Sequence record: CP025712.1
DNA: 46,701 nucleotides
Origin: Escherichia phage YDC107_1
Reading direction: 5' to 3' (one strand)
Part shown: positions 9,343-46,299 of the stretch, in pieces
Layout of the letters: every line of letters begins with the position of its first letter
Position numbering within the stretch: the first letter of the stretch is position 1
Notes under the pieces: generated by a model
Seen by the model: only the letters and a program-made list of their open reading frames with translations
Told to the model about the DNA's origin: nothing
Database searches by the model: none
Position numbers and translations under genes: made by a program

Positions 9343-9353
9343 ACATCCCCCTT

Positions 9354-18317: not shown

Positions 18318-18340
18318 GCTCCTGAATACATGCCCTGTTT

Positions 18341-26233: not shown

Positions 26234-26876
26234 TTAATAATGCGGTTCGATTTAAGCTCAGACATCGCGACTTAATTAAAAGCCAGCGTTCTTTATAATC
26301 TTGTCTCCAGCTATCAATAGATATATTCAGTAGAAAACTCAGATGCCTGTCCTGTTCTCTCTCATCAACTGCCTCAGCACACGTAAGTTCTGATTTAACC
26401 TGTTGTGCCGCGTAATAAATCAATTTCCGCATGGCTTTTTTCGTGGAGGCCTTCATTTTTTTAAAGCCGCCCCCCGAATGAGCAACCAGAAAATCAAGCC
26501 ATAACCACTGACAAACAATCACATCATTGTTGTAATCAGGCTTGCATCCGTAGCAATAATAAAGCCAGGCTGATTCCTCGTTATTCAACTGACCAATAGC
26601 CCTGCGCCAGCTGGCGCTCTGAAAATCAATATCAGTGAGCAACATTGATGATTGTTTAAATGTTTTCCCCTGATGGAATCTAACCGGCTCAGCAGGAACG
26701 GACACTTCGTATGAGTTATCATCCCCCACACTGATTGACCGGACTGGTTTATTGTTAAACCGTCCTGATCTACCGAGACGCATCTGCTCAAGCTGGACCT
26801 CCAGAATGCCACGCTGGCGATAATGAACATCAGCCAATGCCGTAGAGACGCAGCTGCGTATATACTCAAGCTCCAC
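26166..26876 (-). CDS. Hypothetical early protein directly downstream of cro (regulator or Q-like candidate)
   Basis: 236 aa from a GTG start with SD AAGGAG; contains CYGC…C cysteines; family not recognised. Confidence 0.5.
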   Translation of the reverse strand: MELEYIRSCVSTALADVHYRQRGILEVQLEQMRLGRSGRFNNKPVRSISVGDDNSYEVSVPAEPVRFHQGKTFKQSSMLLTDIDFQSASWRRAIGQLNNEESAWLYYCYGCKPDYNNDVIVCQWLWLDFLVAHSGGGFKKMKASTKKAMRKLIYYAAQQVKSELTCAEAVDEREQDRHLSFLLNISIDSWRQDYKERWLLIKSRCLSLNRTALLNAAEKRSEIIKRHRAGSAILPL

Positions 26877-27087
26877 GCTTACGACTCTCCTTAATCGACT
26901 GCTTTACCCGCCGAGTTGTAAAGTCACTCTTCAGCTTATAAGCAGTACGAACTTCAATATCGCTTTGCCGCAATGAAGGAATCTCTCCAGCGGTTAACCA
27001 TTGGTAAACAGCTCCGGGTGTTACACCTACCCCTGCCGCTGCTTTTTCTACACTGCCAAAATGGCGAATAAGTTCTTCTGGTTTCAT
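26866..27087 (-). CDS. cro: Cro-like HTH repressor
   Basis: 73 aa from MKPEELIRHFGSVEKAAAGVGVTPGAVYQWL; divergent from the repressor gene. Confidence 0.7.
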   Translation of the reverse strand: MKPEELIRHFGSVEKAAAGVGVTPGAVYQWLTAGEIPSLRQSDIEVRTAYKLKSDFTTRRVKQSIKESRKRGA

Positions 27088-27118
27088 GTTGTTATTATAA
27101 ACAATAAACAACAATTAA

Positions 27119-27156
27119 AGCCAGCTATAATAAATAAATTTTATAGCCAGCTATAA
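27119..27156. promoter_or_regulatory. Operator region between cro and cB: two AGCCAGCTATAA repeats
   Basis: Repeats at 27119-27130 and 27145-27156; the second lies in the near-palindrome TTATAGCCAGCTATAA; AT-rich promoter context. Confidence 0.5.
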
Positions 27157-27178
27157 GAAGATCATTTATGATTACAGT

Positions 27179-27775
27179 ATGAAAACACGAGGCGAACGAC
27201 TGAAAGCACGCCGTTTAGAGATGAAGCTGACGTTGCGAGAAGTTGCTGAGGCTGTCGATATCTCTATAGCAGGCGTCCAAAACTTAGAACGTGGCGACGT
27301 AATGCCGTCACTGGAGATAGGTATTGCCCTGGCTAAGTGCTTACGCAAGCCAGTGCATTGGGTGCTATATGGGACAGAATATGACCCTGATCGCATTCCT
27401 GTTATTGGCACAACTGAAAGTGGGCCGGATGAAGAGTGGAAGCCGGGACAGGTTCCAAATACTGAGCGATTCCTGCCATTCATCAGCCAGCGCAATACTG
27501 TGTATGCGTTAACTATCAGCAATCTTACGCAGGGAAACTATCAGCCAGGCGATTTTCTCCTGGTCGATTCTGCGCTGGAACTGGTCCCCGGCGAGGATGT
27601 TCTGGTTCGTGATACTGCAGGAAATATCACTATCCAGCGCCTGGCCCGTTTTGATGATGAAAATTACTATCTGGATGGAACAAACTCACAACGCGCCATC
27701 TTCAGGAAAAGCGATCTTGAATTTGTTCACCAAATAGTCGGAACGATCAAATCATTCATGGTTGAGGGTAGATGA
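27179..27775 (+). CDS. cB: Prophage repressor (N15 CB / lambda CI analogue): HTH plus degenerate LexA-like C-terminal domain
   Basis: 198 aa; N-terminal HTH LTLREVAEAVDISIAGVQNLERG. Confidence 0.8.
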   Translation: MKTRGERLKARRLEMKLTLREVAEAVDISIAGVQNLERGDVMPSLEIGIALAKCLRKPVHWVLYGTEYDPDRIPVIGTTESGPDEEWKPGQVPNTERFLPFISQRNTVYALTISNLTQGNYQPGDFLLVDSALELVPGEDVLVRDTAGNITIQRLARFDDENYYLDGTNSQRAIFRKSDLEFVHQIVGTIKSFMVEGR

Positions 27776-27869
27776 CTTAATACGGGGTTTATTGTTTGCT
27801 GTAAATCTGGTTTAATGCAGGGCATATGTTCTGTGGGTTGACTCAGGTTACAGCAGCAGAAAAAAGACG

Positions 27870-27905
27870 AAAAAAAACCCGAGTCGGCAAACTCGGGTCC
27901 TTTTC
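27870..27905. terminator. Bidirectional rho-independent terminator after the repressor gene
   Basis: A-run, CCCGAGT-CGGCAAA-ACTCGGG, then T-run. Confidence 0.5.
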
Positions 27906-28020
27906 AGGAAGCAGCCACAACAACGCGACAGATTCCGTCAATTCAAGATGCGTTTATTGTGGCTGCTCCTGCGGATTTTTTCAACCCGAAAAAACATAAT
28001 TCGCATGGAATGGCTAAAAA

Positions 28021-31000
28021 ATGACATTAAACGATTTCTATGCGGATCGCTTTGGCAGCGATCCGTTCTCGCTAATTGAAGCAGCACGGGATGAACTAAC
28101 CGAGCTGGCACAGATGGCTGGTATCAACTGGCCTGCCTGTTCCGACAACATCCAACTCAACCCTCGCGGGGGGGTTGAGCGTTACTCTTCATACAATAAA
28201 ACATCTCCAGAAGCTCTCGAAAAGAGCCTGAAAGGACGCGTAGAAATTTACTCCAGGCTGGAACACAGCAAAGGGATTGATTACCCGTTCATTAACTTCG
28301 TCCATAAAGGCAGCGATGCTGGCTCATGGAGCGGTTTCTCCTTCCTGTTTTCTGAATATCGCCGTGAGCAACAACGGAATAATGCGACCGTGGTCGCACA
28401 ACCGGAAGAAGAACGGGAAAGAATAGAACGTCAGGCCGAAGCACGTCGTCGCCGTGAAGAACAAAAACGAATTAATGACCTGAAAAACAACCAAATGGAC
28501 CATGAACGTTTGCTGGGATGGCTGGCATTCCACAGCGCGTGGGAACATGCTCAGGCTGAAGACGGCTCATGGCCATATGCGATTAAAAAAGGTATTCGTG
28601 ACGTTTTTAGTTCATGTGATGTGCGTCGCGTGACCAGTCACGACAGTGCGAAATGGAGCCGGGGGCCAACCACATATATGGCTATCCCTCTGGCTCACCT
28701 GGACGGTCGTTATGATGGTCGTATTGTGGGTTGGCAGCGAATCGACAAACAAGGTGGGAAATACCAGACCAGCGCAGTAACCAGCGGCGATTTCGTCGGT
28801 GCCTGCTTTGTTATCGGTGAGCTGAAAGGGGCGCAAAACATCGCTGTTACAGAAGGTTTTGCTACTGGTGCATCCATCTGGCTTGCCACGAAAAAAGATA
28901 AACGCTTTGACGCGGTGGTTGTCGCTGTATCCGCTAACAACATGGTTCATGTTGTGGAACAACTGGTAAACATGTACCCGGCGGCAAAAATCACCTGCGC
29001 ACTGGATAATGACCGGAAATCTGCCACAGAAGGAAAAGGGAATACCGGCCTGCGGACTGGCTATGAAATCTTATCGAAATTCAACGATGTCCGCTGCGTC
29101 TACCCAACTTTTGAAGACGATCCGCAAATGGAGTGCAGTGACTTCAACGACCTGCACAAACTACGTGGACTTCGTGAAACAGCACGTCAACTATTTGCAA
29201 CAGCAAACCGCCTGAAAACCGGCACTGATTTGCTATCTCTGACGCTCAACCGCCTGAAGACAATTAAGCGGGATAACCGTCGTACTTTTGCCAAAGAGCT
29301 GCTGAGAGCGGTGGATATTGGCATGCTAACCTGTCCGGTTCCTAACAGTCCGTCAGATTTGTTTAACATGTTCTGTATCGTTCTGCGTGAAATGGGGCTG
29401 GAAAATATCTATCGCGCTACGGTAAAAGACCACATTGCCCGTCGCCTGAATAAAAAATGCCGTATTGCCCAGGCTCCGCGCTCTTTCAGCGAACGCATAA
29501 CTGATCCCAATAAACGCCCTCAACATATCACCTATAAGCGTTTTGAAACTTCGGTAATGACCTATGACGTCCTGAAGTACGTGCAATCACTACAGGGGAT
29601 CGTCATCGTTCGTGCTGGTATGGGTTCCGGCAAATCTACTGGATTGTTACGACCGTTAATGCATAGCTCAGAACGCGGTATCTCTGTAGCTCACCGTGTT
29701 TCCCTTATTGGTGGCCTGTGGGAAATGATGACTGAAGGAAAAGGTGTAAAAGCCGATATCCTGCACTATCAGGACCCTGGCTATCAGGAAATGGCTCCAT
29801 ACGCCAGTAAACTGACCATCTGCATAAACTCGATTGTTAAAAACTGCTGGCAACCGTTGATGCGCCAGCACGACTATTTTGGCTTTGACGAGGCCACACA
29901 AGGGCTACGTGCCGTTCTTTCCGGTCGGGCTATGGAAAACCCAGTGGCTGTATTCAATACGCTAATTGACGCGCTGGCCAGAACGGAACAACACCCAATA
30001 ATGGTGGATGCTGATGCGAACGATCTGCTGGTTGACCTGGCTGAACTGGCTATGAAACGCCGTGAAGAACTAGGTTTACCGGCATGGCTGCAGATCCACG
30101 TAATTGAATTACCTGTTGATGTTCGCAACCGCGAAACAGGTGAGCCAATCCGGGTTTTTTATACAGAAAAAGATCGCATCATGACCGAGGTGGTGAAAGC
30201 TGTATCGGATGGCGAAAAAATCATGTTGGCCACCGACAGCTCCACCTTTGCAGAAGATGTGACCGCCACCCTGAGAATGCATTTTCCTGGTAAGAAATTT
30301 CTGTGCGTAAACCAGAAAAGCAAACAGGATGAAGAAGTCGATGCTTTTACCAACCAGCCAAAAGTAATGGTGATGAAATACGATGGACTGATCTACAGCC
30401 CGTCGATTTCCTCCGGGGTGTCATTTGAGAAAAAACATTTTGACCGTCATTTCGGCATGTTCTGCGGTGAAGTTGTGCCCAGCGACGCAGTGCAAATGCT
30501 ACGCCGCGACCGTACAGCAAAAGAATTTATTATCGGCTTTGATAAAGCTCGTGCAAAACGCGAGACTGATCCGCAAAAAATAGAACGTGCATTCGCCCAG
30601 GCATTACTTGCTACCGCAGGCATGAACGGTGAACTGACGGATGTCGTTTTCGATGGCGACCGTATATCAATGGGGGTGGCCAATACCGACTTTACCAGGA
30701 TGAAAATTAAAGCTGCCGCTATTGAAGCGTCTGCGCGTAACGACTACGCCAGCAACATGATCTGCATCATGCACAGCGACGGTTATAAGGTATCGCCATT
30801 AGCTACTGATTATGCCGCAAATGATTTTGGTAAAGAGCTGCGCAAAGAAGCGCGGGATATTGTGTGGGAACAGACGCTGGATCTGCACCTCAATACAGAG
30901 ACACCAGAAGAATCAGAGCGTGAAGAACTACTAAAAAAACGTGCGCTAACGCTTGAAGAACAGGCAAAACTTGTCCGCTGGGATATTGAGAACGAACTGA

Positions 31001-32004
31001 AACTACCGGTTGAAGAAGGCACGCTGAAATTCTATTTCGATGGTGCTCGAGACAAAATTCGCCGTTATGAAACGATGCTGCTTGATGAAGTCACAGCCCG
31101 TCGTTATGACCGTGAAGAAGCGGCTATCAATTTTACATACGCATACCGCCAGACCGGACAGTGGCAATATTTTGTGGTGACCGCGATGACACGCGAGCAG
31201 GCTGATGATGTATTCAAAGCGAAATTTCCGGGAATAATCGACTACAAGGTAAAAGCCACCCCAGCTGTTGAGGTCGGCATGCGCGGATTCTATGCGCTTA
31301 AATCAGCAACTCTCCGGCAGTATTTTATCGACTGCGGTATCGACCCTGAAACTATGACTGGCGAAGCGACGCAGGAACGCCTTAAGTTCGCTCGAGATAA
31401 TCTCATGACAGCAGAACGCCGTGACCTGTTGAATAACGTTCTGCGCATTGGTGGTTTTATGACACCAAAAGGGAAGCCTAAAGTGCCGGAAGCACTGTTT
31501 AAAAACATCTGCGACTCTCTCGGCCTAAAAACAGGAAAACGTCGCGGCAGAGATGGCGATAAGCGCCCGACATTGCGTTTTGTTGAGCCTGAGTCTGTAG
31601 CATTTATGCTTGATATTCTTACGCAACGTCAGGAGGACGGTATGACGTTGAAAGCTCGCAAGGCAGAAAAATCAACGACCGAAGTGGATCGCGATTTGTC
31701 ATTAAATATATATATGAATGGTGAAACGCGATCCACAAACACGGAGGAACAGGATCCCCCTCGTTCAGCTATATCACAGGCTTTGGCTGTATTGCCGGTG
31801 GCTGTTCCTGAGTCCTGGGCGATGAGTGCTCTGCCATCAGCCGAACTGGAATCTATCAGGGGGTGGTCAGTTGACAGCATCGCATACACGTTTGCAGCCC
31901 TTTATATGACTGAGTTTATGGATTTGCTGTCCGGTCATGAGATTAAGTTGCTGAAGGCTTTTATAGGCCCACGACATGCCAGCGATGAGTTTTGTGTAGT
32001 TTAG
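28021..32004 (+). CDS. repA: Replication protein: Toprim primase fused to a helicase/NTPase (N15 RepA / P4 alpha-like)
   Basis: 1327 aa; Toprim motifs (VTEGFATGASIW, ALDNDRKSATEGKG); Walker A GMGSGKST; Walker B-like FDEATQ. Confidence 0.9.
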   Translation: MTLNDFYADRFGSDPFSLIEAARDELTELAQMAGINWPACSDNIQLNPRGGVERYSSYNKTSPEALEKSLKGRVEIYSRLEHSKGIDYPFINFVHKGSDAGSWSGFSFLFSEYRREQQRNNATVVAQPEEERERIERQAEARRRREEQKRINDLKNNQMDHERLLGWLAFHSAWEHAQAEDGSWPYAIKKGIRDVFSSCDVRRVTSHDSAKWSRGPTTYMAIPLAHLDGRYDGRIVGWQRIDKQGGKYQTSAVTSGDFVGACFVIGELKGAQNIAVTEGFATGASIWLATKKDKRFDAVVVAVSANNMVHVVEQLVNMYPAAKITCALDNDRKSATEGKGNTGLRTGYEILSKFNDVRCVYPTFEDDPQMECSDFNDLHKLRGLRETARQLFATANRLKTGTDLLSLTLNRLKTIKRDNRRTFAKELLRAVDIGMLTCPVPNSPSDLFNMFCIVLREMGLENIYRATVKDHIARRLNKKCRIAQAPRSFSERITDPNKRPQHITYKRFETSVMTYDVLKYVQSLQGIVIVRAGMGSGKSTGLLRPLMHSSERGISVAHRVSLIGGLWEMMTEGKGVKADILHYQDPGYQEMAPYASKLTICINSIVKNCWQPLMRQHDYFGFDEATQGLRAVLSGRAMENPVAVFNTLIDALARTEQHPIMVDADANDLLVDLAELAMKRREELGLPAWLQIHVIELPVDVRNRETGEPIRVFYTEKDRIMTEVVKAVSDGEKIMLATDSSTFAEDVTATLRMHFPGKKFLCVNQKSKQDEEVDAFTNQPKVMVMKYDGLIYSPSISSGVSFEKKHFDRHFGMFCGEVVPSDAVQMLRRDRTAKEFIIGFDKARAKRETDPQKIERAFAQALLATAGMNGELTDVVFDGDRISMGVANTDFTRMKIKAAAIEASARNDYASNMICIMHSDGYKVSPLATDYAANDFGKELRKEARDIVWEQTLDLHLNTETPEESEREELLKKRALTLEEQAKLVRWDIENELKLPVEEGTLKFYFDGARDKIRRYETMLLDEVTARRYDREEAAINFTYAYRQTGQWQYFVVTAMTREQADDVFKAKFPGIIDYKVKATPAVEVGMRGFYALKSATLRQYFIDCGIDPETMTGEATQERLKFARDNLMTAERRDLLNNVLRIGGFMTPKGKPKVPEALFKNICDSLGLKTGKRRGRDGDKRPTLRFVEPESVAFMLDILTQRQEDGMTLKARKAEKSTTEVDRDLSLNIYMNGETRSTNTEEQDPPRSAISQALAVLPVAVPESWAMSALPSAELESIRGWSVDSIAYTFAALYMTEFMDLLSGHEIKLLKAFIGPRHASDEFCVV
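28383..28398. repeat. 16-bp core TGCGACCGTGGTCGCA, copy 5, inside repA
   Basis: Outer bases not complementary (16 of 18); mirrored copy at 45080-45097. Confidence 0.5.
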
Positions 32005-32021
32005 AGGGTAGAAGCGTGGGA

Positions 32022-32288
32022 ATGATGCAAGAGTGCCTCGTTTTGATTGAAGGGTATGATCCGTATGTTGTTAACGTCAGCAGAATGGATACTGGCTATA
32101 GCGACTACAAAACTGGTCGTGAACTGCCGTTCACCATCATCAGGATGAATAGCTTTGGCGATGATGATGCTGTTTATTGCTGTATAGCCAGCGATAAAAA
32201 CATGGAAGACCGGACAGATGAAGCCCGTATGCTATTGAGGAAATATAAGGTAAAGCCGTTATCAGAGAATAACGCTGAGAGGGGTTAA
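32022..32288 (+). CDS. Hypothetical protein
   Basis: From ATG MMQECLVLIEGYDP (ORF-track start 31992 is TTG). Confidence 0.45.
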   Translation: MMQECLVLIEGYDPYVVNVSRMDTGYSDYKTGRELPFTIIRMNSFGDDDAVYCCIASDKNMEDRTDEARMLLRKYKVKPLSENNAERG

Positions 32289-32290
32289 AA

Positions 32291-32686
32291 ATGGCAGTTC
32301 AATCATACAAATACGAATCCCCTTTGGATAAGGGATACATTCGTATCAAGTTAAGTCGTTCTCAGCATAAGGCTATTTTTAAGGTAAGGAAAATTCGCAT
32401 ATTGGATGCGTATGCGTATTACTACAACGGTGAAAATGTTGTTGTTGAACACTTTCTTGCACGATGGTTTGTAGCTCTGATTTTTGTCCCTCTCCTGTTA
32501 ATTGGTACTTTTGTGGATGGTTTTCCTAGTACATGGCGGGAGATAAAGAAAGGCCTATTCCCGCGTAAGTACGGCAGATTTTCGCAAGATAGCTGGCGAG
32601 TTATACCTGGTAAACATTCTGTGGATGAGCAGCCGATTGTTGATTACTGGTTGAAGCATATGGCTGATGCTAAAAAAGTTGATTGA
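32291..32686 (+). CDS. Hypothetical membrane protein
   Basis: 131 aa with SD GAGAGGGG; TM segment WFVALIFVPLLLIGTFV. Confidence 0.5.
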   Translation: MAVQSYKYESPLDKGYIRIKLSRSQHKAIFKVRKIRILDAYAYYYNGENVVVEHFLARWFVALIFVPLLLIGTFVDGFPSTWREIKKGLFPRKYGRFSQDSWRVIPGKHSVDEQPIVDYWLKHMADAKKVD

Positions 32687-32704
32687 GTTGTGGAAGGAGT
32701 ATTT

Positions 32705-32929
32705 ATGAACTGTAACAAAAATGAAGAAACTCGCCTGGTTTGGACGGTAGTAATCGGAGATAAAGAGGGCGGTGAAGAGCCTCATTTTGATTATTCTGTG
32801 GCTTTGCAGGCTCTCATCCTTGAAGCGCAGAGATACCAACAAGAGATGCAGAAGAACCCTCAACTGGAACCTCGACCAATTGGCCTATTCTGCGAGCGAG
32901 TATCAGCGGCGGAACTCCCTGATATCTGA
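32705..32929 (+). CDS. Hypothetical small acidic protein
   Basis: MNCNKNEETRLVWTVVIG…; SD GGAAGGA. Confidence 0.45.
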   Translation: MNCNKNEETRLVWTVVIGDKEGGEEPHFDYSVALQALILEAQRYQQEMQKNPQLEPRPIGLFCERVSAAELPDI

Positions 32930-33120
32930 TGCCCTCCAACAGCTGATCAGGTTCTGATCAGTTAGTAAAGCAAACTATAAAAACACCTGTCCCCGTGACT
33001 GGTCACGGGGTAAAATGTCTTTGCAAATTATTGACGTGTGCGTCGTTTTGACGGTAAAGTTACTTCGCTGCGGTAAATCCCGTAGCCGGGACTCTCAACC
33101 CCGAAATCCGAACGACGCAC

Positions 33121-33143
33121 AACACGCGCCAGCGTGTTTTTTT
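33121..33143 (+). terminator. Rho-independent terminator ending a short untranslated transcript upstream of the anti-repressor operon
   Basis: AACACGC-GCCA-GCGTGTT followed by a T-run. Confidence 0.45.
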
Positions 33144-33309
33144 GTGTGTATGAGCCTGCGCATATCCGAATTATGGTGGCTCAGGTGGGGCAGCCGAAAG
33201 GCTGGCCGGTGTCGTTTGGGCCGGTGTTGAGAACCCCGCTTGGGCTACCACCCCATAGAGATTCTCAACTCTGGTGGTAGCACTGTTTTACCAAACAAGA
33301 GTGCATACC

Positions 33310-33474
33310 ATGTTCAAATTCAAATTTGCGGCAGTCGTTCGCACAGACAAAAAGTCACACATCCATCATCTTTCCACCATCGCGTCATCTGAACGGGAAG
33401 CTCGTCGCCAGTTCGCCAGCCGGTTTGTCCTGGTATTGTCTGCCCGTATTCCGGTGCGCGAGGTGGCTGCATGA
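33310..33474 (+). CDS. Small protein, first gene of the anti-repressor operon (Icd-like position)
   Basis: 54 aa from MFKFKFAAVVRTDKK. Confidence 0.35.
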   Translation: MFKFKFAAVVRTDKKSHIHHLSTIASSEREARRQFASRFVLVLSARIPVREVAA

Positions 33475-33704
33475 ATCAGGTAAAAATGAACACTGTTGGC
33501 CTGCTGGAATCGTTGGATGAACGTCTGGCTCAGGTCTATGCGCTTGTGTCATCAGCCCATCGTACAGTCTCCAGTTGTGAGGCGTCGATTTATCTCTCAG
33601 AAGCCGGGAAGCTCCTTCAAATCGCGTGTGAGTTGACACACAAAGCACAGGGGTATTCAGCATCTCTCTCGTCGCAATTGCAGCACAATAAGGAGGCCAA
33701 ATGA
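33471..33704 (+). CDS. Hypothetical protein (anti-repressor operon)
   Basis: 77 aa, SD GAGGTGG, ATGA-coupled to neighbours. Confidence 0.45.
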   Translation: MNQVKMNTVGLLESLDERLAQVYALVSSAHRTVSSCEASIYLSEAGKLLQIACELTHKAQGYSASLSSQLQHNKEAK

Positions 33705-34477
33705 GCGCGTTAGCTGTATTTTCGTTTCAGGAAGAGCATCAGGTTCGTGTAGTGATGATTGATAGCGATCCGTGGTTTGTTGCATCTGATGTGTGTATGG
33801 CGGCGGGTATTGATTCTACGGCCATTAGAAAGTTGGATGAGGACGAAAAGGGTCTGCATTTAATGCAGACCCCTGGCGGATACCAGAATGTTTCAATCAT
33901 CAAGGAGTCAGGTCTATACACCCTAATCCTCCGCTGCCGTGACGCGGTGAAGCAAGGCACAACAGCTTGGCGGTTTCGCAAATGGGTAACGAACGAAGTC
34001 TTGCCCTCTATTCGCAAAAATGGAGAGTACGTTTACGTTGAGCCAGAGCCAATGCGAGCAGCAGAGCCGTTGAACTGGAGGCAGAAAGAGTATCTGCGAG
34101 GGCTGATTAACGATATTGCACAAAGTTTTCAATACCGAAATGCCTGGATTAGCGGTGTATGGTTGGCTTTGCGTCGGGCGTGTCGTAATCCATCCCCGAA
34201 CCCCATAACTGTTGATGATTTGCCAGCAATAACGGCAGAACTGCGACGGATTTTGACGGCTGCTGAGTCGGCATTGGGGAACATGCGCACGTATGAACGA
34301 GAGTTGTTGCGTGATGTTGTTCGTGGTGGTAGGCGGAGTATGTCGTGTGGTGATTTGCCCATCACCGATATCAACTCTGATCTGGAAAAGGCGTTACCCG
34401 CGCATTTTGAACTGGCAGTTCAAAAACTTGAGCAGTTGTCCGCGCAGCTAAAGCCAGCAGAAATCACCAATAAATAG
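33701..34477 (+). CDS. ant: Anti-repressor with Bro-N domain
   Basis: 258 aa; N-terminus FSFQEEHQVRVVMIDSDPWFVASDVCMAAGI… typical of Bro-N/Ant; SD AGGAGG. Confidence 0.75.
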   Translation: MSALAVFSFQEEHQVRVVMIDSDPWFVASDVCMAAGIDSTAIRKLDEDEKGLHLMQTPGGYQNVSIIKESGLYTLILRCRDAVKQGTTAWRFRKWVTNEVLPSIRKNGEYVYVEPEPMRAAEPLNWRQKEYLRGLINDIAQSFQYRNAWISGVWLALRRACRNPSPNPITVDDLPAITAELRRILTAAESALGNMRTYERELLRDVVRGGRRSMSCGDLPITDINSDLEKALPAHFELAVQKLEQLSAQLKPAEITNK

Positions 34478-34649
34478 GGTTGGCCAGCCCGAATTGATGC
34501 CCTTCTTAGTGAGGGGAAGCCTCGCAGTCTGGGCGGTGATGTCTGTGGTTGCAGCCGCGTTTCCTCCGTTACTTCTGCCCTTTGCAGGGGGCAGGCGAGG
34601 CAGGCCACATAACAAGGCACCGATTAATTCGGTGCCTTTAACGTATGCT

Positions 34650-36551
34650 TTAGCCGAAATATGTCAGCCATGCTAACTGCATTGCTGACATGGGGCTGTT
34701 TGCACTGCCTGACCACGCATAATTCTGGCCATTATAATGAAACTCAACAACGTATGAGCCATCACCAATATTTCTCACAGGCTTAAATACCGGCTTAGAT
34801 ACAGGTGAAGAAGGCGCGGGCGGTTGCTGTTCTTCTACGCTCTCTTCCTCTTCCTCTTCCTCTTCCTCTATCTCAATTTCGTCGTCATCCAGATCGTCAT
34901 CCTCTGATAATTCATCCGTCTGTTCAGGTATTGCTTCCAGCTCTTCTTCGTCAGGCATAACGATTTCTGGAGAATCTATTTTCAGCTGCCATTGTCCATT
35001 TTCGCCAACAAATTGCCCCAGAGCATCAGCAGCAAATTCCAGGTATCGACTAATCATTGTAGGGCTAAATTTGAATGCTCTTAGAGTGCTGTTCGTGATT
35101 TTTATAGAGGGGTCATGCTCTACCAGCTGCTTAACTGTGTTATGCAGACGAACCCCGGCATCTCCTCTGGCGAATCCTGGCATTTCGTCATCAAGCTGCT
35201 GCAATGCTTCCAGCCTGGTATTTTCGTTTCCAGTATTTGGCCTCCATGTCTTTGAGAAGTTGGCCAGCTTGAATTGCTTATAGTGTAATTGAGTGTTTTC
35301 ATCGTCATGGCCTAAAATTTCCATAAAGAAAACATCCTCATCTACGTTTTTCCAACGAGGATCTACGCGGAAAAACATTTCATACGCAATACGGGCATAA
35401 ATAGCACGACTATCTTTATAAACACGGCGGTCATCTTTGAAAAATGATTTAACCCACGGGTTAAAAGCCTTTGCTAATATGGCATTAATCCGTCCGTTTT
35501 CAGAGCGTGTGTCGTTATCTCCATAACCTTTAACGACATCATCAAAATCAGATGCTGCCGGGCATGAGCGAAGTACATTTATTAAATAAACAAATGTTTT
35601 TGCTTCGCATAATGTATATATTTTTCTGGTTATATCATCAGAAGTTCTTTTTTTTGCTTGGCCTAAAAAATCAACGGTATACTTACCAGAAACAGTAAAT
35701 GTACCTTGATACATAATCTCAATCATTCGTCTTCCTGACAATGCAGCAAGTGCAAATGCCAAAGGAGCCATACCTGAACGAGTGTTTAGATTATTTAATG
35801 TAGCAGGGCTATTTATAATATCGTAAATAGCTTGCATATATTTAGGGTAATCAATGACCACCACGTTACGTTTCTTATTGTGCAGAACGTCTGCCCATCG
35901 TTGCTGGATAGATGCGCGTTCGGCAGGGCTTAGTTGAAGATGATAGAGAATCTCATGGTTAACTTTTAGCTGATTCAACTCCTCAAGCAAGGCAGATCCT
36001 TGCTGTAGTAATTTATATAAATAATCGCGCTTATCTTTCCAGTTATCGCTAGTTAAATCAGAAATGGCGAATTGCCACTCTTTATATTTATTTGATAATT
36101 TTAATAACTTATTATGACTTTTGTTATCACCAATTCTGATATTAGATAAATCTTCTGATAAAGGGAGAATTAATTTTAATTTTGCCTGTAAAGCTGACAT
36201 TCTCTGGCGAATATCGGCAGCAGGTAGAGAAAGCCATGACAATAGCTCCTCATTATATAAAGGATACTTTTCAGATAGGCGATGTATATTTTTTTCAAAG
36301 CTATGATGAAGTTTATCATCAAACCGTTTTCTGGCCCTGCTCATATAGGTATTGAATGTGTTGGCTGTAATTCTTTTTTCTAATCCTTTCCCCCTAAACT
36401 TTCGCTTGTCATTAAATAATGCATTTTTAAACTTTAATGCAACAGCCTTTATTTTTTTTGTTTTCTCCCCTTGAGGACGGTCAGAGTTATCTATTGACTC
36501 AACATCGCTAACAAGTGAGTTTATTAATTCACCGATTTTTACTTTGCTCAT
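34650..36551 (-). CDS. telN: Protelomerase (TelN-like telomere resolvase)
   Basis: 633 aa; N-terminus MSKVKIGELINSLVSDVESIDNSDRPQGEKTKKIK… and length resemble N15 TelN as I recall; acidic C-terminal stretch; start 190 bp from the telRL-like palindrome. Confidence 0.88.
   Translation of the reverse strand: MSKVKIGELINSLVSDVESIDNSDRPQGEKTKKIKAVALKFKNALFNDKRKFRGKGLEKRITANTFNTYMSRARKRFDDKLHHSFEKNIHRLSEKYPLYNEELLSWLSLPAADIRQRMSALQAKLKLILPLSEDLSNIRIGDNKSHNKLLKLSNKYKEWQFAISDLTSDNWKDKRDYLYKLLQQGSALLEELNQLKVNHEILYHLQLSPAERASIQQRWADVLHNKKRNVVVIDYPKYMQAIYDIINSPATLNNLNTRSGMAPLAFALAALSGRRMIEIMYQGTFTVSGKYTVDFLGQAKKRTSDDITRKIYTLCEAKTFVYLINVLRSCPAASDFDDVVKGYGDNDTRSENGRINAILAKAFNPWVKSFFKDDRRVYKDSRAIYARIAYEMFFRVDPRWKNVDEDVFFMEILGHDDENTQLHYKQFKLANFSKTWRPNTGNENTRLEALQQLDDEMPGFARGDAGVRLHNTVKQLVEHDPSIKITNSTLRAFKFSPTMISRYLEFAADALGQFVGENGQWQLKIDSPEIVMPDEEELEAIPEQTDELSEDDDLDDDEIEIEEEEEEEEESVEEQQPPAPSSPVSKPVFKPVRNIGDGSYVVEFHYNGQNYAWSGSANSPMSAMQLAWLTYFG
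34842..34868. repeat. (CTCTTC)n hexanucleotide repeat inside telN, encoding a poly-Glu tract
   Basis: Four and a half tandem CTCTTC units; mirrored at about 38616-38642. Confidence 0.6.
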
Positions 36552-36714
36552 CTTTCCTCTCCTGATTATCCGCTCGGATTATCGTAACACAATTTGAGAA
36601 TAAGATAACTAATAACGCGTTAACTTAGGCACAAACTAACAGAACACAATAACGGATAATAAATAAAAACACAATATCGGAACGTTAAAATTTGTTCCTT
36701 GACTTTGTTCTGAA

Positions 36715-36770
36715 AATCAGCACATAATTTCCCATTATACGCGCGTATAATGGGAAATTATGTGCTGATT
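36715..36770. other. telRL-like telomere resolution site; centre of dyad symmetry between 36742 and 36743
   Basis: AATCAGCACATAATTT-CCCATTATACGCGCGTATAATGGG-AAATTATGTGCTGATT, same architecture as N15 telRL as I recall. Confidence 0.8.
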
Positions 36771-36933
36771 TTCAGAACAAAGTCAAGGAACAAATTTTAA
36801 CGTTCCGATATTGTGTTTTTATTTATTATCCGTTATTGTGTTCTGTTAGTTTGTGCCTAAGTTAACGCGTTATTAGTTATCTTATTCTCAAATTGTGTTA
36901 CGATAATCCGAGCGGATAATCAGGAGAGGAAAG

Positions 36934-38833
36934 ATGAGCAAAGTAAAAATCGGTGAATTAATAAACTCACTTGTTAGCGATGTTGAGTCAATAGATAACT
37001 CTGACCGTCCTCAAGGGGAGAAAACAAAAAAAATAAAGGCTGTTGCATTAAAGTTTAAAAATGCATTATTTAATGACAAGCGAAAGTTTAGGGGGAAAGG
37101 ATTAGAAAAAGAATTACAGCCAACACATTCAATACCTATATGAGCAGGGCCAGAAAACGGTTTGATGATAAACTTCATCATAGCTTTGAAAAAAATATAC
37201 ATCGCCTATCTGAAAAGTATCCTTTATATAATGAGGAGCTATTGTCATGGCTTTCTCTACCTGCTGCCGATATTCGCCAGAGAATGTCAGCTTTACAGGC
37301 AAAATTAAAATTAATTCTCCCTTTATCAGAAGATTTATCTAATATCAGAATTGGTGATAACAAAAGTCATAATAAGTTATTAAAATTATCAATAAATATA
37401 AAGAGTGGCAATTCGCCATTTCTGATTTAACTAGCGATAACTGGAAAGATAAGCGCGATTATTTATATAAATTACTACAGCAAGGATCTGCCTTGCTTGA
37501 GGAGTTGAATCAGCTAAAAGTTAACCATGAGATTCTCTATCATCTTCAACTAAGCCCTGCCGAACGCGCATCTATCCAGCAACGATGGGCAGACGTTCTG
37601 CACAATAAGAAACGTAACGTGGTGGTCATTGATTACCCTAAATATATGCAAGCTATTTACGATATTATAAATAGCCCTGCTACATTAAATAATCTAAACA
37701 CTCGTTCAGGTATGGCTCCTTTGGCATTTGCACTTGCTGCATTGTCAGGAAGACGAATGATTGAGATTATGTATCAAGGTACATTTACTGTTTCTGGTAA
37801 GTATACCGTTGATTTTTTAGGCCAAGCAAAAAAAAGAACTTCTGATGATATAACCAGAAAAATATATACATTATGCGAAGCAAAAACATTTGTTTATTTA
37901 ATAAATGTACTTCGCTCATGCCCGGCAGCATCTGATTTTGATGATGTCGTTAAAGGTTATGGAGATAACGACACACGCTCTGAAAACGGACGGATTAATG
38001 CCATATTAGCAAAGGCTTTTAACCCGTGGGTTAAATCATTTTTCAAAGATGACCGCCGTGTTTATAAAGATAGTCGTGCTATTTATGCCCGTATTGCGTA
38101 TGAAATGTTTTTCCGCGTAGATCCTCGTTGGAAAAACGTAGATGAGGATGTTTTCTTTATGGAAATTTTAGGCCATGACGATGAAAACACTCAATTACAC
38201 TATAAGCAATTCAAGCTGGCCAACTTCTCAAAGACATGGAGGCCAAATACTGGAAACGAAAATACCAGGCTGGAAGCATTGCAGCAGCTTGATGACGAAA
38301 TGCCAGGATTCGCCAGAGGAGATGCCGGGGTTCGTCTGCATAACACAGTTAAGCAGCTGGTAGAGCATGACCCCTCTATAAAAATCACGAACAGCACTCT
38401 AAGAGCATTCAAATTTAGCCCTACAATGATTAGTCGATACCTGGAATTTGCTGCTGATGCTCTGGGGCAATTTGTTGGCGAAAATGGACAATGGCAGCTG
38501 AAAATAGATTCTCCAGAAATCGTTATGCCTGACGAAGAAGAGCTGGAAGCAATACCTGAACAGACGGATGAATTATCAGAGGATGACGATCTGGATGACG
38601 ACGAAATTGAGATAGAGGAAGAGGAAGAGGAAGAGGAAGAGAGCGTAGAAGAACAGCAACCGCCCGCGCCTTCTTCACCTGTATCTAAGCCGGTATTTAA
38701 GCCTGTGAGAAATATTGGTGATGGCTCATACGTTGTTGAGTTTCATTATAATGGCCAGAATTATGCGTGGTCAGGCAGTGCAAACAGCCCCATGTCAGCA
38801 ATGCAGTTAGCATGGCTGACATATTTCGGCTAA
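36934..38833 (+). pseudogene. Mirror copy of telN, broken by two 1-bp homopolymer contractions
   Basis: ORF fragments 36934..37143, 37140..37430 and 37493..38833; first break is A6 to A5 at about 37107. Confidence 0.7.
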
Positions 38834-39005
38834 AGCATACGTTAAAGGCACCGAATTAATCGGTGCCTTGTTATGTGGCCTGCCTCGCCTGCCCCCTGCA
38901 AAGGGCAGAAGTAACGGAGGAAACGCGGCTGCAACCACAGACATCACCGCCCAGACTGCGAGGCTTCCCCTCACTAAGAAGGGCATCAATTCGGGCTGGC
39001 CAACC

Positions 39006-39782
39006 CTATTTATTGGTGATTTCTGCTGGCTTTAGCTGCGCGGACAACTGCTCAAGTTTTTGAACTGCCAGTTCAAAATGCGCGGGTAACGCCTTTTCCA
39101 GATCAGAGTTGATATCGGTGATGGGCAAATCACCACACGACATACTCCGCCTACCACCACGAACAACATCACGCAACAACTCTCGTTCATACGTGCGCAT
39201 GTTCCCCAATGCCGACTCAGCAGCCGTCAAAATCCGTCGCAGTTCTGCCGTTATTGCTGGCAAATCATCAACAGTTATGGGGTTCGGGGATGGATTACGA
39301 CACGCCCGACGCAAAGCCAACCATACACCGCTAATCCAGGCATTTCGGTATTGAAAACTTTGTGCAATATCGTTAATCAGCCCTCGCAGATACTCTTTCT
39401 GCCTCCAGTTCAACGGCTCTGCTGCTCGCATTGGCTCTGGCTCAACGTAAACGTACTCTCCATTTTTGCGAATAGAGGGCAAGACTTCGTTCGTTACCCA
39501 TTTGCGAAACCGCCAAGCTGTTGTGCCTTGCTTCACCGCGTCACGGCAGCGGAGGATTAGGGTGTATAGACCTGACTCCTTGATGATTGAAACATTCTGG
39601 TATCCGCCAGGGGTCTGCATTAAATGCAGACCCTTTTCGTCCTCATCCAACTTTCTAATGGCCGTAGAATCAATACCCGCCGCCATACACACATCAGATG
39701 CAACAAACCACGGATCGCTATCAATCATCACTACACGAACCTGATGCTCTTCCTGAAACGAAAATACAGCTAACGCGCTCAT
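39006..39782 (-). CDS. Mirror copy of the Bro-N anti-repressor gene (intact)
   Basis: Identical 258-aa translation to 33701..34477. Confidence 0.5.
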   Translation of the reverse strand: MSALAVFSFQEEHQVRVVMIDSDPWFVASDVCMAAGIDSTAIRKLDEDEKGLHLMQTPGGYQNVSIIKESGLYTLILRCRDAVKQGTTAWRFRKWVTNEVLPSIRKNGEYVYVEPEPMRAAEPLNWRQKEYLRGLINDIAQSFQYRNAWISGVWLALRRACRNPSPNPITVDDLPAITAELRRILTAAESALGNMRTYERELLRDVVRGGRRSMSCGDLPITDINSDLEKALPAHFELAVQKLEQLSAQLKPAEITNK

Positions 39783-40012
39783 TTGGCCTCCTTATTGTGC
39801 TGCAATTGCGACGAGAGAGATGCTGAATACCCCTGTGCTTTGTGTGTCAACTCACACGCGATTTGAAGGAGCTTCCCGGCTTCTGAGAGATAAATCGACG
39901 CCTCACAACTGGAGACTGTACGATGGGCTGATGACACAAGCGCATAGACCTGAGCCAGACGTTCATCCAACGATTCCAGCAGGCCAACAGTGTTCATTTT
40001 TACCTGATTCAT
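39779..40012 (-). CDS. Mirror copy of the 77-aa anti-repressor-operon gene
   Basis: Identical translation to 33471..33704. Confidence 0.4.
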   Translation of the reverse strand: MNQVKMNTVGLLESLDERLAQVYALVSSAHRTVSSCEASIYLSEAGKLLQIACELTHKAQGYSASLSSQLQHNKEAK

Positions 40013-40173
40013 GCAGCCACCTCGCGCACCGGAATACGGGCAGACAATACCAGGACAAACCGGCTGGCGAACTGGCGACGAGCTTCCCGTTCAGATGACG
40101 CGATGGTGGAAAGATGATGGATGTGTGACTTTTTGTCTGTGCGAACGACTGCCGCAAATTTGAATTTGAACAT
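40009..40173 (-). CDS. Mirror copy of the Icd-position small gene
   Basis: Identical translation to 33310..33474. Confidence 0.3.
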   Translation of the reverse strand: MFKFKFAAVVRTDKKSHIHHLSTIASSEREARRQFASRFVLVLSARIPVREVAA

Positions 40174-40553
40174 GGTATGCACTCTTGTTTGGTAAAACAG
40201 TGCTACCACCAGAGTTGAGAATCTCTATGGGGTGGTAGCCCAAGCGGGGTTCTCAACACCGGCCCAAACGACACCGGCCAGCCTTTCGGCTGCCCCACCT
40301 GAGCCACCATAATTCGGATATGCGCAGGCTCATACACACAAAAAAACACGCTGGCGCGTGTTGTGCGTCGTTCGGATTTCGGGGTTGAGAGTCCCGGCTA
40401 CGGGATTTACCGCAGCGAAGTAACTTTACCGTCAAAACGACGCACACGTCAATAATTTGCAAAGACATTTTACCCCGTGACCAGTCACGGGGACAGGTGT
40501 TTTTATAGTTTGCTTTACTAACTGATCAGAACCTGATCAGCTGTTGGAGGGCA

Positions 40554-40778
40554 TCAGATATCAGGGAGTTCCGCCGCTGATACTCGCTCGCAGAATAGGC
40601 CAATTGGTCGAGGTTCCAGTTGAGGGTTCTTCTGCATCTCTTGTTGGTATCTCTGCGCTTCAAGGATGAGAGCCTGCAAAGCCACAGAATAATCAAAATG
40701 AGGCTCTTCACCGCCCTCTTTATCTCCGATTACTACCGTCCAAACCAGGCGAGTTTCTTCATTTTTGTTACAGTTCAT
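40554..40778 (-). CDS. Mirror copy of the small acidic protein gene
   Basis: Identical translation to 32705..32929. Confidence 0.35.
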   Translation of the reverse strand: MNCNKNEETRLVWTVVIGDKEGGEEPHFDYSVALQALILEAQRYQQEMQKNPQLEPRPIGLFCERVSAAELPDI

Positions 40779-40796
40779 AAATACTCCTTCCACAAC

Positions 40797-41191
40797 TCAA
40801 TCAACTTTTTTAGCATCAGCCATATGCTTCAACCAGTAATCAACAATCGGCTGCTCATCCACAGAATGTTTACCAGGTATAACTCGCCAGCTATCTTGCG
40901 AAAATCTGCCGTACTTACGCGGGAATAGGCCTTTCTTTATCTCCCGCCATGTACTAGGAAAACCATCCACAAAAGTACCAATTAACAGGAGAGGGACAAA
41001 ATCAGAGCTACAAACCATCGTGCAAGAAAGTGTTCAACAACAACATTTTCACCGTTGTAGTAATACGCATACGCATCCAATATGCGAATTTTCCTTACCT
41101 TAAAAATAGCCTTATGCTGAGAACGACTTAACTTGATACGAATGTATCCCTTATCCAAAGGGGATTCGTATTTGTATGATTGAACTGCCAT
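40797..41191 (-). pseudogene. Mirror copy of the membrane-protein gene, frameshifted
   Basis: T5 to T4 contraction splits it into ORFs 40797..41018 and 40982..41191. Confidence 0.6.
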
Positions 41192-41193
41192 TT

Positions 41194-41460
41194 TTAACCC
41201 CTCTCAGCGTTATTCTCTGATAACGGCTTTACCTTATATTTCCTCAATAGCATACGGGCTTCATCTGTCCGGTCTTCCATGTTTTTATCGCTGGCTATAC
41301 AGCAATAAACAGCATCATCATCGCCAAAGCTATTCATCCTGATGATGGTGAACGGCAGTTCACGACCAGTTTTGTAGTCGCTATAGCCAGTATCCATTCT
41401 GCTGACGTTAACAACATACGGATCATACCCTTCAATCAAAACGAGGCACTCTTGCATCAT
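41194..41460 (-). CDS. Mirror copy of the hypothetical gene 32022..32288
   Basis: Identical translation. Confidence 0.35.
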   Translation of the reverse strand: MMQECLVLIEGYDPYVVNVSRMDTGYSDYKTGRELPFTIIRMNSFGDDDAVYCCIASDKNMEDRTDEARMLLRKYKVKPLSENNAERG

Positions 41461-41477
41461 TCCCACGCTTCTACCCT

Positions 41478-45458: not shown

Positions 45459-45703
45459 TTTTTAGCCATTCCATGCGAATTATGTTTTTTCGGGTTGAAA
45501 AAATCCGCAGGAGCAGCCACAATAAACGCATCTTGAATTGACGGAATCTGTCGCGTTGTTGTGGCTGCTTCCTGAAAAGGACCCGAGTTTGCCGACTCGG
45601 GTTTTTTTTCGTCTTTTTTCTGCTGCTGTAACCTGAGTCAACCCACAGAACATATGCCCTGCATTAAACCAGATTTACAGCAAACAATAAACCCCGTATT
45701 AAG

Positions 45704-46299
45704 TCATCTACCCTCAACCATGAATGATTTGATCGTTCCGACTATTTGGTGAACAAATTCAAGATCGCTTTTCCTGAAGATGGCGCGTTGTGAGTTTGTT
45801 CCATCCAGATAGTAATTTTCATCATCAAAACGGGCCAGGCGCTGGATAGTGATATTTCCTGCAGTATCACGAACCAGAACATCCTCGCCGGGGACCAGTT
45901 CCAGCGCAGAATCGACCAGGAGAAAATCGCCTGGCTGATAGTTTCCCTGCGTAAGATTGCTGATAGTTAACGCATACACAGTATTGCGCTGGCTGATGAA
46001 TGGCAGGAATCGCTCAGTATTTGGAACCTGTCCCGGCTTCCACTCTTCATCCGGCCCACTTTCAGTTGTGCCAATAACAGGAATGCGATCAGGGTCATAT
46101 TCTGTCCATATAGCACCCAATGCACTGGCTTGCGTAAGCACTTAGCCAGGGCAATACCTATCTCCAGTGACGGCATTACGTCGCCACGTTCTAAGTTTTG
46201 GACGCCTGCTATAGAGATATCGACAGCCTCAGCAACTTCTCGCAACGTCAGCTTCATCTCTAAACGGCGTGCTTTCAGTCGTTCGCCTCGTGTTTTCAT
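45704..46299 (-). pseudogene. Mirror copy of the cB repressor gene, frameshifted
   Basis: GGG to GG contraction; fragments 45704..46141 and 45967..46299. Confidence 0.65.

Follow-up and report, generated by a model that had tools for sequence, protein, structure and literature searches.

Between the replication gene repA and the anti-repressor locus, N15 and phiKO2 carry four genes each (36-33 and 34-31, respectively), which are tightly spaced, share one orientation and are followed by a conserved block made of a palindrome and the Pa promoter. Our search of the literature on N15 gp33-36 returned no function. [quoted passage not shown] In Klebsiella telomere phages, the interval between RepA and protelomerase is a cargo site occupied by telocin:immunity cassettes such as NAR688 TelA-ImmA, which are expressed in lysogens (PMC12042878). 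Telocins are bacteriocin-type toxins, either pore-forming or peptidoglycan-degrading, and ImmA displays four hydrophobic helices. Two further comparisons are useful. The nin region of lambdoid phages lies directly behind the replication genes in a repressor-controlled early operon and consists of small non-essential ORFs swapped as single-gene modules. T4 Imm, T4 Spackle and HK97 gp15 are membrane or periplasmic superinfection-exclusion proteins, small, stand-alone and accessory.

The DNA analysed here (the window) is the whole stretch of 46,701 nucleotides from Escherichia phage YDC107_1 (CP025712.1). Protelomerase domains, an HTH repressor with a weak Peptidase_S24 (LexA-like) domain, Bro-N antB and C4 RNA, together with a gene order matching exactly that of N15 and phiKO2, show that it is an N15-type (Ravinvirus-like) linear plasmid-prophage. 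The repA product contains the Pfam domain Herpes_ori_bp and a weak, sub-threshold Toprim_3, and is 99.4% identical to the CyRepA1 protein of an E. albertii plasmid. The operon opens with repA and has the three ORFs considered here at its tail; downstream are the C4-RNA, icd, antA and Bro-N antB locus and then the protelomerase gene, flanks which the preliminary description of the region had correctly named (Table 1).

Table 1. Features of the interval between repA and the anti-repressor locus, with positions in the window.
Feature	Position	Strand	Remarks
repA	28021..32004	+	1327 aa primase/helicase/origin-binding replication protein
ORF1	32016..32288 (preliminary description: 32022..32288)	+	phrog_18790
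ORF2	32291..32686	+	phrog_15458
ORF3	32705..32929	+	phrog_21657
Right conserved anchor of the variable interval	32945..33060	+	Palindrome and Pa-like promoter
Palindrome CCCCGTGAC-TG-GTCACGGGG	32990-33011		Within right anchor
Pa-like promoter TTGACG-18-TAAAGT	33031-33060	+	Consensus scan
Start of anti-repressor (immA-type) locus	33067..33255	+	Downstream limit of the three-ORF block
isrK-like leader	33067-33142		Rfam 54.9 bits (gathering score 50)
Terminator-like hairpin	33121-33138		Within isrK-like leader; T run follows
C4-type antisense RNA	33169-33255		Rfam 71.8 bits (gathering score 45)
Mirror of ORF3, ORF2 (frameshifted) and ORF1	40554..41466	-	Within the folded-back copy of the 10 kb next to the telomere; an artefact of assembly is most likely

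The end of the record has to be read with care. In a self-BLAST, 26776-46701 aligned with its own reverse complement at 99.92% identity with 0 mismatches: the last 10 kb of the window is a copy folded back through the hairpin telomere. Positions 36739-46701 repeat 26776-36738 in reverse complement, so that the three ORFs reappear there as mirror images. The right arm is short of 8 single bases, each beside at least one identical base, and one of them falls at 32481 in ORF2. Most likely the mirror copy does not represent a second locus. An assembly error at the hairpin end is the most likely cause, and gene counts or 'second copies' drawn from its last 10 kb are not to be trusted.

The three ORFs had been described as co-oriented, tightly spaced and preceded by good Shine-Dalgarno (SD) sites, and this holds. 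The spacing is 11 nt between repA and ORF1, 2 nt between ORF1 and ORF2, and 18 nt between ORF2 and ORF3; GAGAGGGG lies 6 nt 5′ of the ORF2 ATG and GGAAGGAG 5 nt 5′ of that of ORF3. For ORF1, the start is probably the GTG at 32016 (90 aa) and not the ATG at 32022 (88 aa) chosen before, because its homologues begin with MGKQRE or MGMMQE in our family alignment, an AGGG sits 7 nt upstream, and gene callers on public contigs select the same 90 aa start. These independent calls keep the order RepA(1327)-90-131-74 aa, and the three-gene set was called on 11 public contigs. Purifying selection is shown for all three. Against N15 and phiKO2, ORF1 displays pN of 0.18-0.21 and pS of 0.77-0.85 (0.18 and 0.85 with N15), while dN/dS is 0.27 for ORF2 against an 84% identical homologue and about 0.09 for ORF3 against phiKO2. 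With ratios well below 1, or synonymous sites saturated at a pN of about 0.2, these are genuine protein-coding genes.

Families could be found for the three products, none of which had been assigned to one before; all are families with no assigned function, and we found no role for them in the literature. ORF1 encodes an acidic protein (pI 4.7), which is 75.9% identical to N15 gp36 over residues 2-80 (tblastn, E=6e-36) and 69% identical to phiKO2 Gp34, and matches phrog_18790 at positions 3-82 of 82 (E=7e-54). The family alignment retains 33 invariant columns. Moreover, the distance from the repA stop to the gene of this family on the same strand is 11 nt both here and in N15, and 12 nt in phiKO2. 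A profile scan of genome contigs with this family gave one spurious locus and nothing else. ORF3 encodes 74 aa, also acidic (pI 4.6), with 72.9% identity to phiKO2 Gp31 over residues 2-71 (E=4e-28) and a match to phrog_21657 over its full length (1-74 of 74, E=1.1e-52). Judged by these alignments, ORF1 is a homologue of gp36/Gp34 and ORF3 of Gp31, so that both are counterparts of long-known but unnamed N15 and phiKO2 genes. ORF3 is possibly also a short distant paralogue of N15 gp35 (phrog_10878): hmmscan (E=0.018), BLASTP (E=1e-4, 27% identity over 48 aa) and hhalign (E=0.002, with a probability of 13.6%) all align one same region, none being decisive alone.

The ORF2 product (131 aa) is basic (pI 9.75) and matches phrog_15458 from end to end (1-131 of 131, E=1.6e-91), as do 77 of the 77 aligned relatives. 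They share the motifs Y-x-Y..P...GY, H26, EYY, LFP and KYG-F, with Y8, G15, H26, Y43, G77 and G95 near-invariant. These profile matches place ORF2 in a broad phage family, so far uncharacterised, with 163 or more clusters at 50% identity. Its members occupy diverse sites: downstream of a gene for DNA polymerase or of DnaC-like plus RdgC genes, in the gap separating terminase from portal genes, close to genes for ribonucleotide reductase, and on viral contigs of 308 and 501 kb. A viral-contig scan with an ORF2 sub-alignment recovered 5 loci. In the P22-like Proteus phage Brookers, the family member gp56 occupies a nin-region site with the replication genes on one side and ninB on the other. Other N15-like plasmid-phages, MStein-2023a for example, are the only places where a relative of ORF1 or ORF3 adjoins one of ORF2; in the unrelated phages this never occurs.

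The locus thus shares its slot with N15 genes 36-33 and phiKO2 genes 34-31, as shown by position, orientation, spacing and flanking blocks. The content differs: three genes are present here, four there. Neither gp35 proper nor the DUF5448/Eaf-like gene nor the gp33/Gp32 family (phrog_21746) is represented in the element, which carries instead a phrog_15458 gene, absent from both N15 and phiKO2.

That the genes are accessory and not housekeeping is borne out by their distribution. Among the 225 RepA-bearing plasmids of PLSDB, the families of ORF1, ORF2 and ORF3 were detected in 21, 47 and 34 respectively, counts to be taken as minima given the short queries and the E<=1e-5 threshold. With such counts, none of the three appears as a core gene of N15-like phages with a housekeeping role. 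In close relatives ORF2 is interrupted or deleted: two of them (L029 and L030) carry an IS200/IS605 element inside it, the rest being 99.3% identical, and it is split by an IS in many Shigella and E. coli isolates. In L019 and in an E. albertii plasmid, ORF1 is cut down to 22 codons and ORF2 is absent. PhiR46_1 shares just 32276-32692 and the sequence from 32945 on, the point at which homology with L019 also restarts; in the ORF3 slot, PhiR46_1-type plasmids and L019 have an unrelated 95-aa ORF with a signal peptide. From the repA stop to the antA start, the distance ranges from 965 to 3077 bp among relatives and accommodates many different ORF families. These comparisons show a slot in which single-gene cassettes are swapped or lost or take IS insertions, the junctions lying at the boundaries of genes, and which behaves as a recombination hotspot flanked by conserved anchors, one being the 3′ end of repA and the other the block with the palindrome and the Pa promoter. 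A three-gene system of toxin-antitoxin or toxin-immunity type was dropped since the genes assort independently.

The right anchor has a near-identical counterpart in N15, between genes 33 and 32. We considered its palindrome as an N15 SopB centromere and rejected it: the inverted repeats published for N15 read TGCGACC-NN-GGTCGCA (PMC7205306) and sit elsewhere in the window. It was also discarded as an operon terminator, having no + strand T run and not appearing in the terminator scan, and two of its apparent 'four dispersed copies' are mirror images from the fold-back.

Taken together, we are inclined, if only slightly, to read the three ORFs as nin-like early accessory genes, each acting independently. 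On the + strand, a simple consensus scan of 32004-32929 showed no promoter-like or terminator-like site, the next promoter-like site being at 33031. These missing signals and the short gaps between the genes suggest that the three would be co-transcribed with repA from a repressor-controlled early promoter, with expression presumably low in the lysogen and strong after infection or induction. Each gene would work alone and not as part of a three-gene system. The parallel with the lambdoid nin region includes the location directly behind replication genes in such an operon, the small exchangeable ORFs and the placement of Brookers gp56 before ninB. Unlike in that region, NinB, NinG and other named Nin proteins are absent here and the N15-type antiterminator gene is located elsewhere; by this comparison, the likeness is one of position and evolutionary behaviour, not of homology of the whole region. 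ORF1 and ORF3 would be small acidic cytoplasmic proteins, most likely acting by binding another protein, whose identity could be a host factor, a component of host defence or, for ORF1, RepA. A role in early host modulation or counter-defence, aiding propagation of the phage or plasmid rather than protecting the lysogen, is weakly suggested. As functional homologues were not found, size, charge, position and distribution are the basis of these proposed roles. Pfam and NCBIfam scans of the three proteins gave no match, and PDB searches with single sequences and family profiles gave none either (best E-values 0.17-1.3).

ORF2 had been called a small membrane protein, a label derived from hydropathy alone. 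Its hydrophobic segment is indeed long and hydrophobic enough to span a bilayer (Kyte-Doolittle 19-residue maximum of 2.27 at residues 60-78; family median 2.08), and no signal peptide was predicted. The evidence on its contacts argues against a single-pass topology. Using 77 diverse sequences from an exhaustive profile search, AF2 yielded a model with pLDDT 94.2 and pTM 0.81 (pLDDT 36.6 with just 4 close sequences). The predicted order is an N-terminal beta-rich domain, a hydrophobic helix (58-76), an amphipathic helix (78-94), a strand (98-103) and a C-terminal helix; the two central helices would pair antiparallel and the strand would go back to the N-terminal sheet, an arrangement with which the order of secondary structures is compatible. 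The top couplings of an independent mfDCA analysis connect the N-terminal part with the strand after the helix (6-97, 33-100, 49-103, 50-102) and support the helix hairpin (65-89, 69-82). Since co-evolution and model place both halves on the same side of the hydrophobic helix, a simple membrane-spanning protein is probably not what ORF2 encodes. It could nevertheless span the membrane, for example following a conformational change, the helix being hydrophobic enough for insertion. For this fold, Foldseek against the PDB found no neighbour at E<=1e-3, and BFVD returned uncharacterised relatives only. We propose that ORF2 would be a basic alpha+beta protein whose hydrophobic helix packs back on the domain, leaving one greasy face exposed for peripheral (monotopic) membrane attachment or self-association and not for a transmembrane span. 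A more daring version, in which it is an amphitropic early protein of a new kind, soluble or peripheral at rest and inserting or oligomerising at the membrane, seems to us rather doubtful; if true, it might be used in host takeover, exclusion or anchoring of replicating DNA.

The preliminary description had viewed the region as a typical place for exclusion or defence cargo. The location as a cargo site is confirmed by the Klebsiella telocin:immunity cassettes, which show that this interval tolerates cargo expressed in the lysogen and make a lysogen-benefiting role a real alternative. At least one gene would then act in superinfection exclusion or anti-phage defence from the prophage, for instance ORF2 at the inner membrane by stopping DNA entry. 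Like T4 Imm, Spackle and HK97 gp15, ORF2 is small and stand-alone; it has one strongly hydrophobic helix, and in L012, a relative, the interval contains an ORF with a weak, sub-threshold resemblance to Colicin_im. The secreted 95-aa protein of the PhiR46_1-type ORF3 slot, annotated as Spackle by its depositors, points in the same direction, but we dropped this label since it has neither a PDB sequence match nor a named PHROG. No sequence or fold similarity to superinfection-exclusion proteins emerged in the searches run, and the three ORFs are set apart from telocins and their immunity proteins by description, with no bacteriocin or immunity domain (no Pfam match) and with one hydrophobic segment in ORF2 and none in ORF1 and ORF3 against the four helices of ImmA. 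The suggested search with a defence-system library was run: PADLOC-DB v2 (dating from 2023, with newer systems outside its coverage) matched 0 families at E<=1 for the three proteins. Moreover, ORF1 and ORF3 have no signal segment either, the predicted mutual contact of the ORF2 halves argues against a bitopic protein, and protection of a lysogen seems unlikely for relatives placed between terminase and portal genes or on contigs of 308-501 kb. The frequent disruption of ORF2 by IS in Shigella and E. coli speaks in the same sense. Defence or exclusion cargo was thus not corroborated for these genes and we consider it unlikely.

Alternatively, ORF1 especially, and possibly ORF2, could help replication or maintenance, by modulating RepA or replisome assembly, the number of copies, or the way in which the linear DNA is attached to the membrane while it replicates. 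ORF1 always follows repA by 11-12 nt and, compared with N15, is no less conserved than the RepA C-terminus (76% versus 63% identity), and the different RepA C-terminal tail of the PhiR46_1 type goes with a different first downstream gene. ORF2 is very basic and its relatives are often behind replication genes, as in the DNA polymerase, DnaC-like/RdgC and P22-like contexts. However, replication is sustained without these genes in the minimal linear and circular replicons, the ORF1 family was detected in just 21 of the 225 RepA-bearing plasmids (a lower bound), plasmids with a 22-codon ORF1 or an IS-split ORF2 persist in nature, and ORF2 relatives are in structural-gene regions too. Such a role is quite unlikely. 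Lastly, that chance ORFs or decaying remnants fill a non-functional spacer, as their short length, their lack of assigned function and the deletions and IS insertions in the interval might suggest, is already contradicted by the strong purifying selection, the full length kept across Escherichia, Klebsiella, Enterobacter and Yersinia elements, the well positioned SD sites and the confident fold obtained from co-evolution across the ORF2 family, and has hardly any chance of being correct.

For annotation, ORF1 can be described as gp36-like, ORF2 as a phrog_15458 protein and ORF3 as Gp31-like, that is, as dispensable and individually exchangeable cargo of the repA operon, in place of defence-system or core-gene labels. 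The segment from the repA stop to the palindrome/Pa block is now defined as a single-gene cassette hotspot of telomere phages; as the interval also houses the Klebsiella telocins, it is where new cargo should be sought. The sole wider point of the locus concerns ORF2, whose family is large, found in diverse contexts and endowed with a confidently predicted orphan fold, yet so far unstudied. ORF2 would merit a test at the bench should it turn out to have a general early function.

The window is an N15-type linear plasmid-prophage, in which the order HTH repressor, repA, small ORFs, anti-repressor (ant) locus and protelomerase gene (telN) is the same as in N15 and phiKO2. The three small + strand genes, ORF1 to ORF3, lie exactly where the preliminary description had placed them, separated by gaps of 2 and 18 nt, with good Shine-Dalgarno sequences for ORF2 and ORF3. 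For ORF1, GTG 32016 is the more probable start, giving 90 aa, since homologues begin with MGKQRE or MGMMQE, an AGGG is located 7 nt 5′ of this codon and independent gene callers choose it. Judged from their sequences, all three are real genes. Compared with N15, phiKO2 and the related locus L014, ORF1 displays pN of 0.18-0.21 while its synonymous sites are saturated (pS 0.77-0.85); dN/dS is 0.27 for ORF2 (against an E. coli plasmid copy, 84% identical) and about 0.09 for ORF3 (against phiKO2). The identical RepA-90-131-74 aa arrangement is found on 11 public contigs. Directly after the three ORFs starts a P1/N15-type RNA-controlled anti-repressor locus (33067-33255).

Features of the region, of its mirror copy and of the ORF2 model (nt of the window unless residues are stated)
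Feature	Position	Strand	Remark
HTH repressor	27179-27775		weak Peptidase_S24 match (LexA-like)
repA	28021-32004	+	1327 aa
ORF1	32016 (or 32022)-32288	+
ORF2	32291-32686	+
ORF3	32705-32929	+
Pa-like promoter	33031-33060	+
c4-a1b1 target	33054-33107		Rfam, weak match
isrK-like leader RNA	33067-33142		Rfam 54.9 bits, above gathering score; ends in terminator hairpin
C4-type antisense RNA	33169-33255		Rfam 71.8 bits, above gathering score
Small icd/antA-like ORFs and Bro-N antB-like gene	33701-34477
Protelomerase gene	34650-36551		convergent
Mirror ORF3	40554-40778	-	identical to original
Mirror ORF2	40797-41191	-	frameshifted; one T lost from T5 run at 32477-32481
Mirror ORF1	41194-41466	-	identical to original
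ORF2 model, strands	residues 17-19, 39-45, 49-56
ORF2 model, hydrophobic helix	residues 58-76
ORF2 model, helices	residues 78-89, 91-94
ORF2 model, strand	residues 98-103
ORF2 model, helix	residues 111-130

Positions 36739-46701 (~9.96 kb) are the reverse complement of 26776-36738, the centre (about 36738-36747) being the N15-type telomere palindrome CCCATTATACGCGCGTATAATGGG. The arms show 0 mismatches, and the right one is without 8 single bases, each adjoining one or more identical bases. From its sequence, this fold-back looks like an assembly reading through a covalently closed hairpin end. It mirrors repA (broken), the three ORFs, the ant locus and telN; homologues indicate that the left-arm version of ORF2 is the correct one, not its frameshifted mirror.

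Contrary to the initial view that no family could be assigned, ORF1 is a homologue of N15 gp36 (76% identity) and phiKO2 Gp34 (69%) within phrog_18790, ORF3 a homologue of phiKO2 Gp31 (73%) within phrog_21657, and ORF2 matches phrog_15458 end to end (E=1.6e-91). ORF3 may also be related to N15 gp35 (phrog_10878) as a short, distant paralogue; the similarities that point this way are weak but mutually consistent (hmmscan E=0.018, BLASTP E=1e-4, hhalign E=0.002 with a probability of only 14%). Pfam, NCBIfam, PADLOC and PDB sequence searches gave zero matches for the three proteins. The published N15 and phiKO2 genomes had already shown counterparts of ORF1 and ORF3 as ORFs without names, ORF2 falls in an existing PHROG, and the exact three-gene arrangement is already present in public assemblies.

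The genes occupy a slot anchored on the left by the repA 3′ end and on the right by a block nearly identical in N15, which holds a palindrome and Pa, the promoter ahead of the ant locus. Across relatives, 965 to 3077 bp separate the repA stop from the antA start, with many unrelated ORF families inside, and cassette junctions coincide with gene boundaries. Relatives of ORF1, ORF2 and ORF3 are present in 21, 47 and 34, respectively, of 225 PLSDB plasmids carrying a RepA homologue; with such short queries, these counts are minima. The closest relatives, Shigella sonnei and E. coli contigs (L029/L030) 99.3% identical over 27016-32535, carry the same three genes, but with ORF2 interrupted. PhiR46_1-type plasmids match the window here only over 32276-32692 (ORF2) and again from 32945 on; a 63-aa ORF and a gp35-like gene take the place of ORF1. 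The ORF3 slot is occupied in PhiR46_1 (L001 5439-5726), L019 (6094-6405) and L034 (3424-3711) by an unrelated protein of 95 aa, which has four cysteines and an evident signal peptide (MKSFILVLCFAFSAAVYA/QE). It is labelled ‘Spackle exclusion protein’ in PhiR46_1, matches only the unannotated family phrog_26765 and gave no match in a PDB sequence search. L019 and an E. albertii plasmid retain 22 ORF1 codons and have lost ORF2, and in the Shigella sonnei/E. coli contigs L029/L030 a 1.8-kb IS200/IS605 element (TnpB and Y1 TnpA; 5521-7335) splits ORF2 at window ~32533-32535. L029 also carries a second TnpB gene (8765-9973) in place of most of the antB-like gene.

ORF2 relatives occur in very diverse phage contexts. 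A PY54-like Yersinia phage has one in its repA operon, a Proteus Gorganvirus right after its DNA polymerase gene, and a P22-like Proteus phage in its nin region. In Swiduovirus-type genomes the relative is flanked by the terminase and portal genes; others follow DnaC-like and RdgC genes, lie close to genes for ribonucleotide reductase, or are carried by large viral contigs (308 and 501 kb). In all unrelated phage contexts examined, ORF1 and ORF3 relatives are absent beside them; they are found together only in other N15-like plasmid-phages, e.g. Enterobacter phage MStein-2023a. The three genes are thus independent cassettes rather than a system.

The initial proposal of a typical cargo site is borne out by Klebsiella telomere phages, where telocin:immunity cassettes expressed in lysogens share the same RepA-to-protelomerase interval (PMC12042878), and by L012, whose 181-aa ORF (6645-7190) weakly matches Colicin_im (E=4e-4, under the Pfam cut-off). 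This ORF and one of 272 aa in L014 (7001-7819), not assigned to a family, are larger cargo of the same interval and may be telocin/immunity-type cassettes of that kind.

The palindrome of the right anchor, CCCCGTGAC-TG-GTCACGGGG (32990-33011), sits between the ORF3 stop, 60 nt before it, and the Pa -35, about 20 nt after it, with no T run on the + strand. A second unique copy of its core, CGTGAC-NN-GTCACG, is located inside the 5′ part of repA (28627-28644); both are kept in N15 and most relatives, and have mirror copies at 40472-40493 and 44835-44852. From sequence, it is probably a protein-binding site. It differs from the N15 SopB centromere repeat, TGCGACC-NN-GGTCGCA (PMC7205306), of which the window contains five unique perfect copies (18301, 18521, 21561, 25940 and, inside repA, 28383; mirror 45081) for a chance expectation of about 0.17; N15 is described with four (IR1-4). 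Close to two of these sites is a 172-bp direct repeat (17388-17559 and 18339-18509, 93% identity).

The exhaustive profile search gathered 163 representative clusters of the ORF2 family at 50% identity, mostly of 110-130 aa and matching positions 5-101, while a word-indexed search returned only 7. All 77 aligned relatives match phrog_15458, and a Pfam scan of them found no meaningful family. The label of small membrane protein needs correcting. Hydropathy does flag residues 60-78 (19-residue Kyte-Doolittle mean 2.27), a hydrophobic segment kept in the family (median 2.08), but the AlphaFold model built from 77 diverse sequences is a compact single domain (pLDDT 94.2, pTM 0.81). Independent mean-field DCA on 145 members gave top couplings 65-89 and 69-82, packing the hydrophobic helix antiparallel to the following amphipathic helix, and 6-97, 33-100, 49-103 and 50-102, by which the strand after this hairpin touches the N-terminal domain. 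The two halves would therefore share one side of the hydrophobic helix, an arrangement incompatible with a single-pass topology, and ORF2 is unlikely to be a simple membrane-spanning protein. Contacts involve one face of this helix (residues 61, 62, 65, 66, 69, 73 and 74); the other face of the modelled helix, also hydrophobic, could bind lipid (monotopic) or another subunit.

The three ORFs end the repA gene string, and a scan found no + strand promoter- or terminator-like site before 33031. They would be transcribed together with repA, from the early promoter under repressor control, at a level presumably low in the lysogen and high upon infection or induction, by analogy with lambdoid nin genes. 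ORF1 and ORF3 (pI 4.7 and 4.6) would be small soluble acidic proteins most likely acting through binding of other proteins, and ORF2 (pI 9.75) most likely a peripheral membrane or self-associating protein. We lean slightly towards an early role benefiting the phage, host modulation or counter-defence, over protection of the lysogen. Exclusion or defence had been suggested from the location; evidence was sought in PADLOC and none found for the three proteins, the ORF2 family occurs where lysogen protection is unlikely, and natural isolates tolerate ORF2 loss. A replication helper is the other alternative; repA by itself is enough for circular replication according to the telomere-phage literature. 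On the whole, the accessory region had been correctly spotted and sensibly interpreted, apart from family assignments and membrane label, and is ordinary. The sole item of wider interest is the ORF2 family, large and unstudied, with a confident orphan fold.
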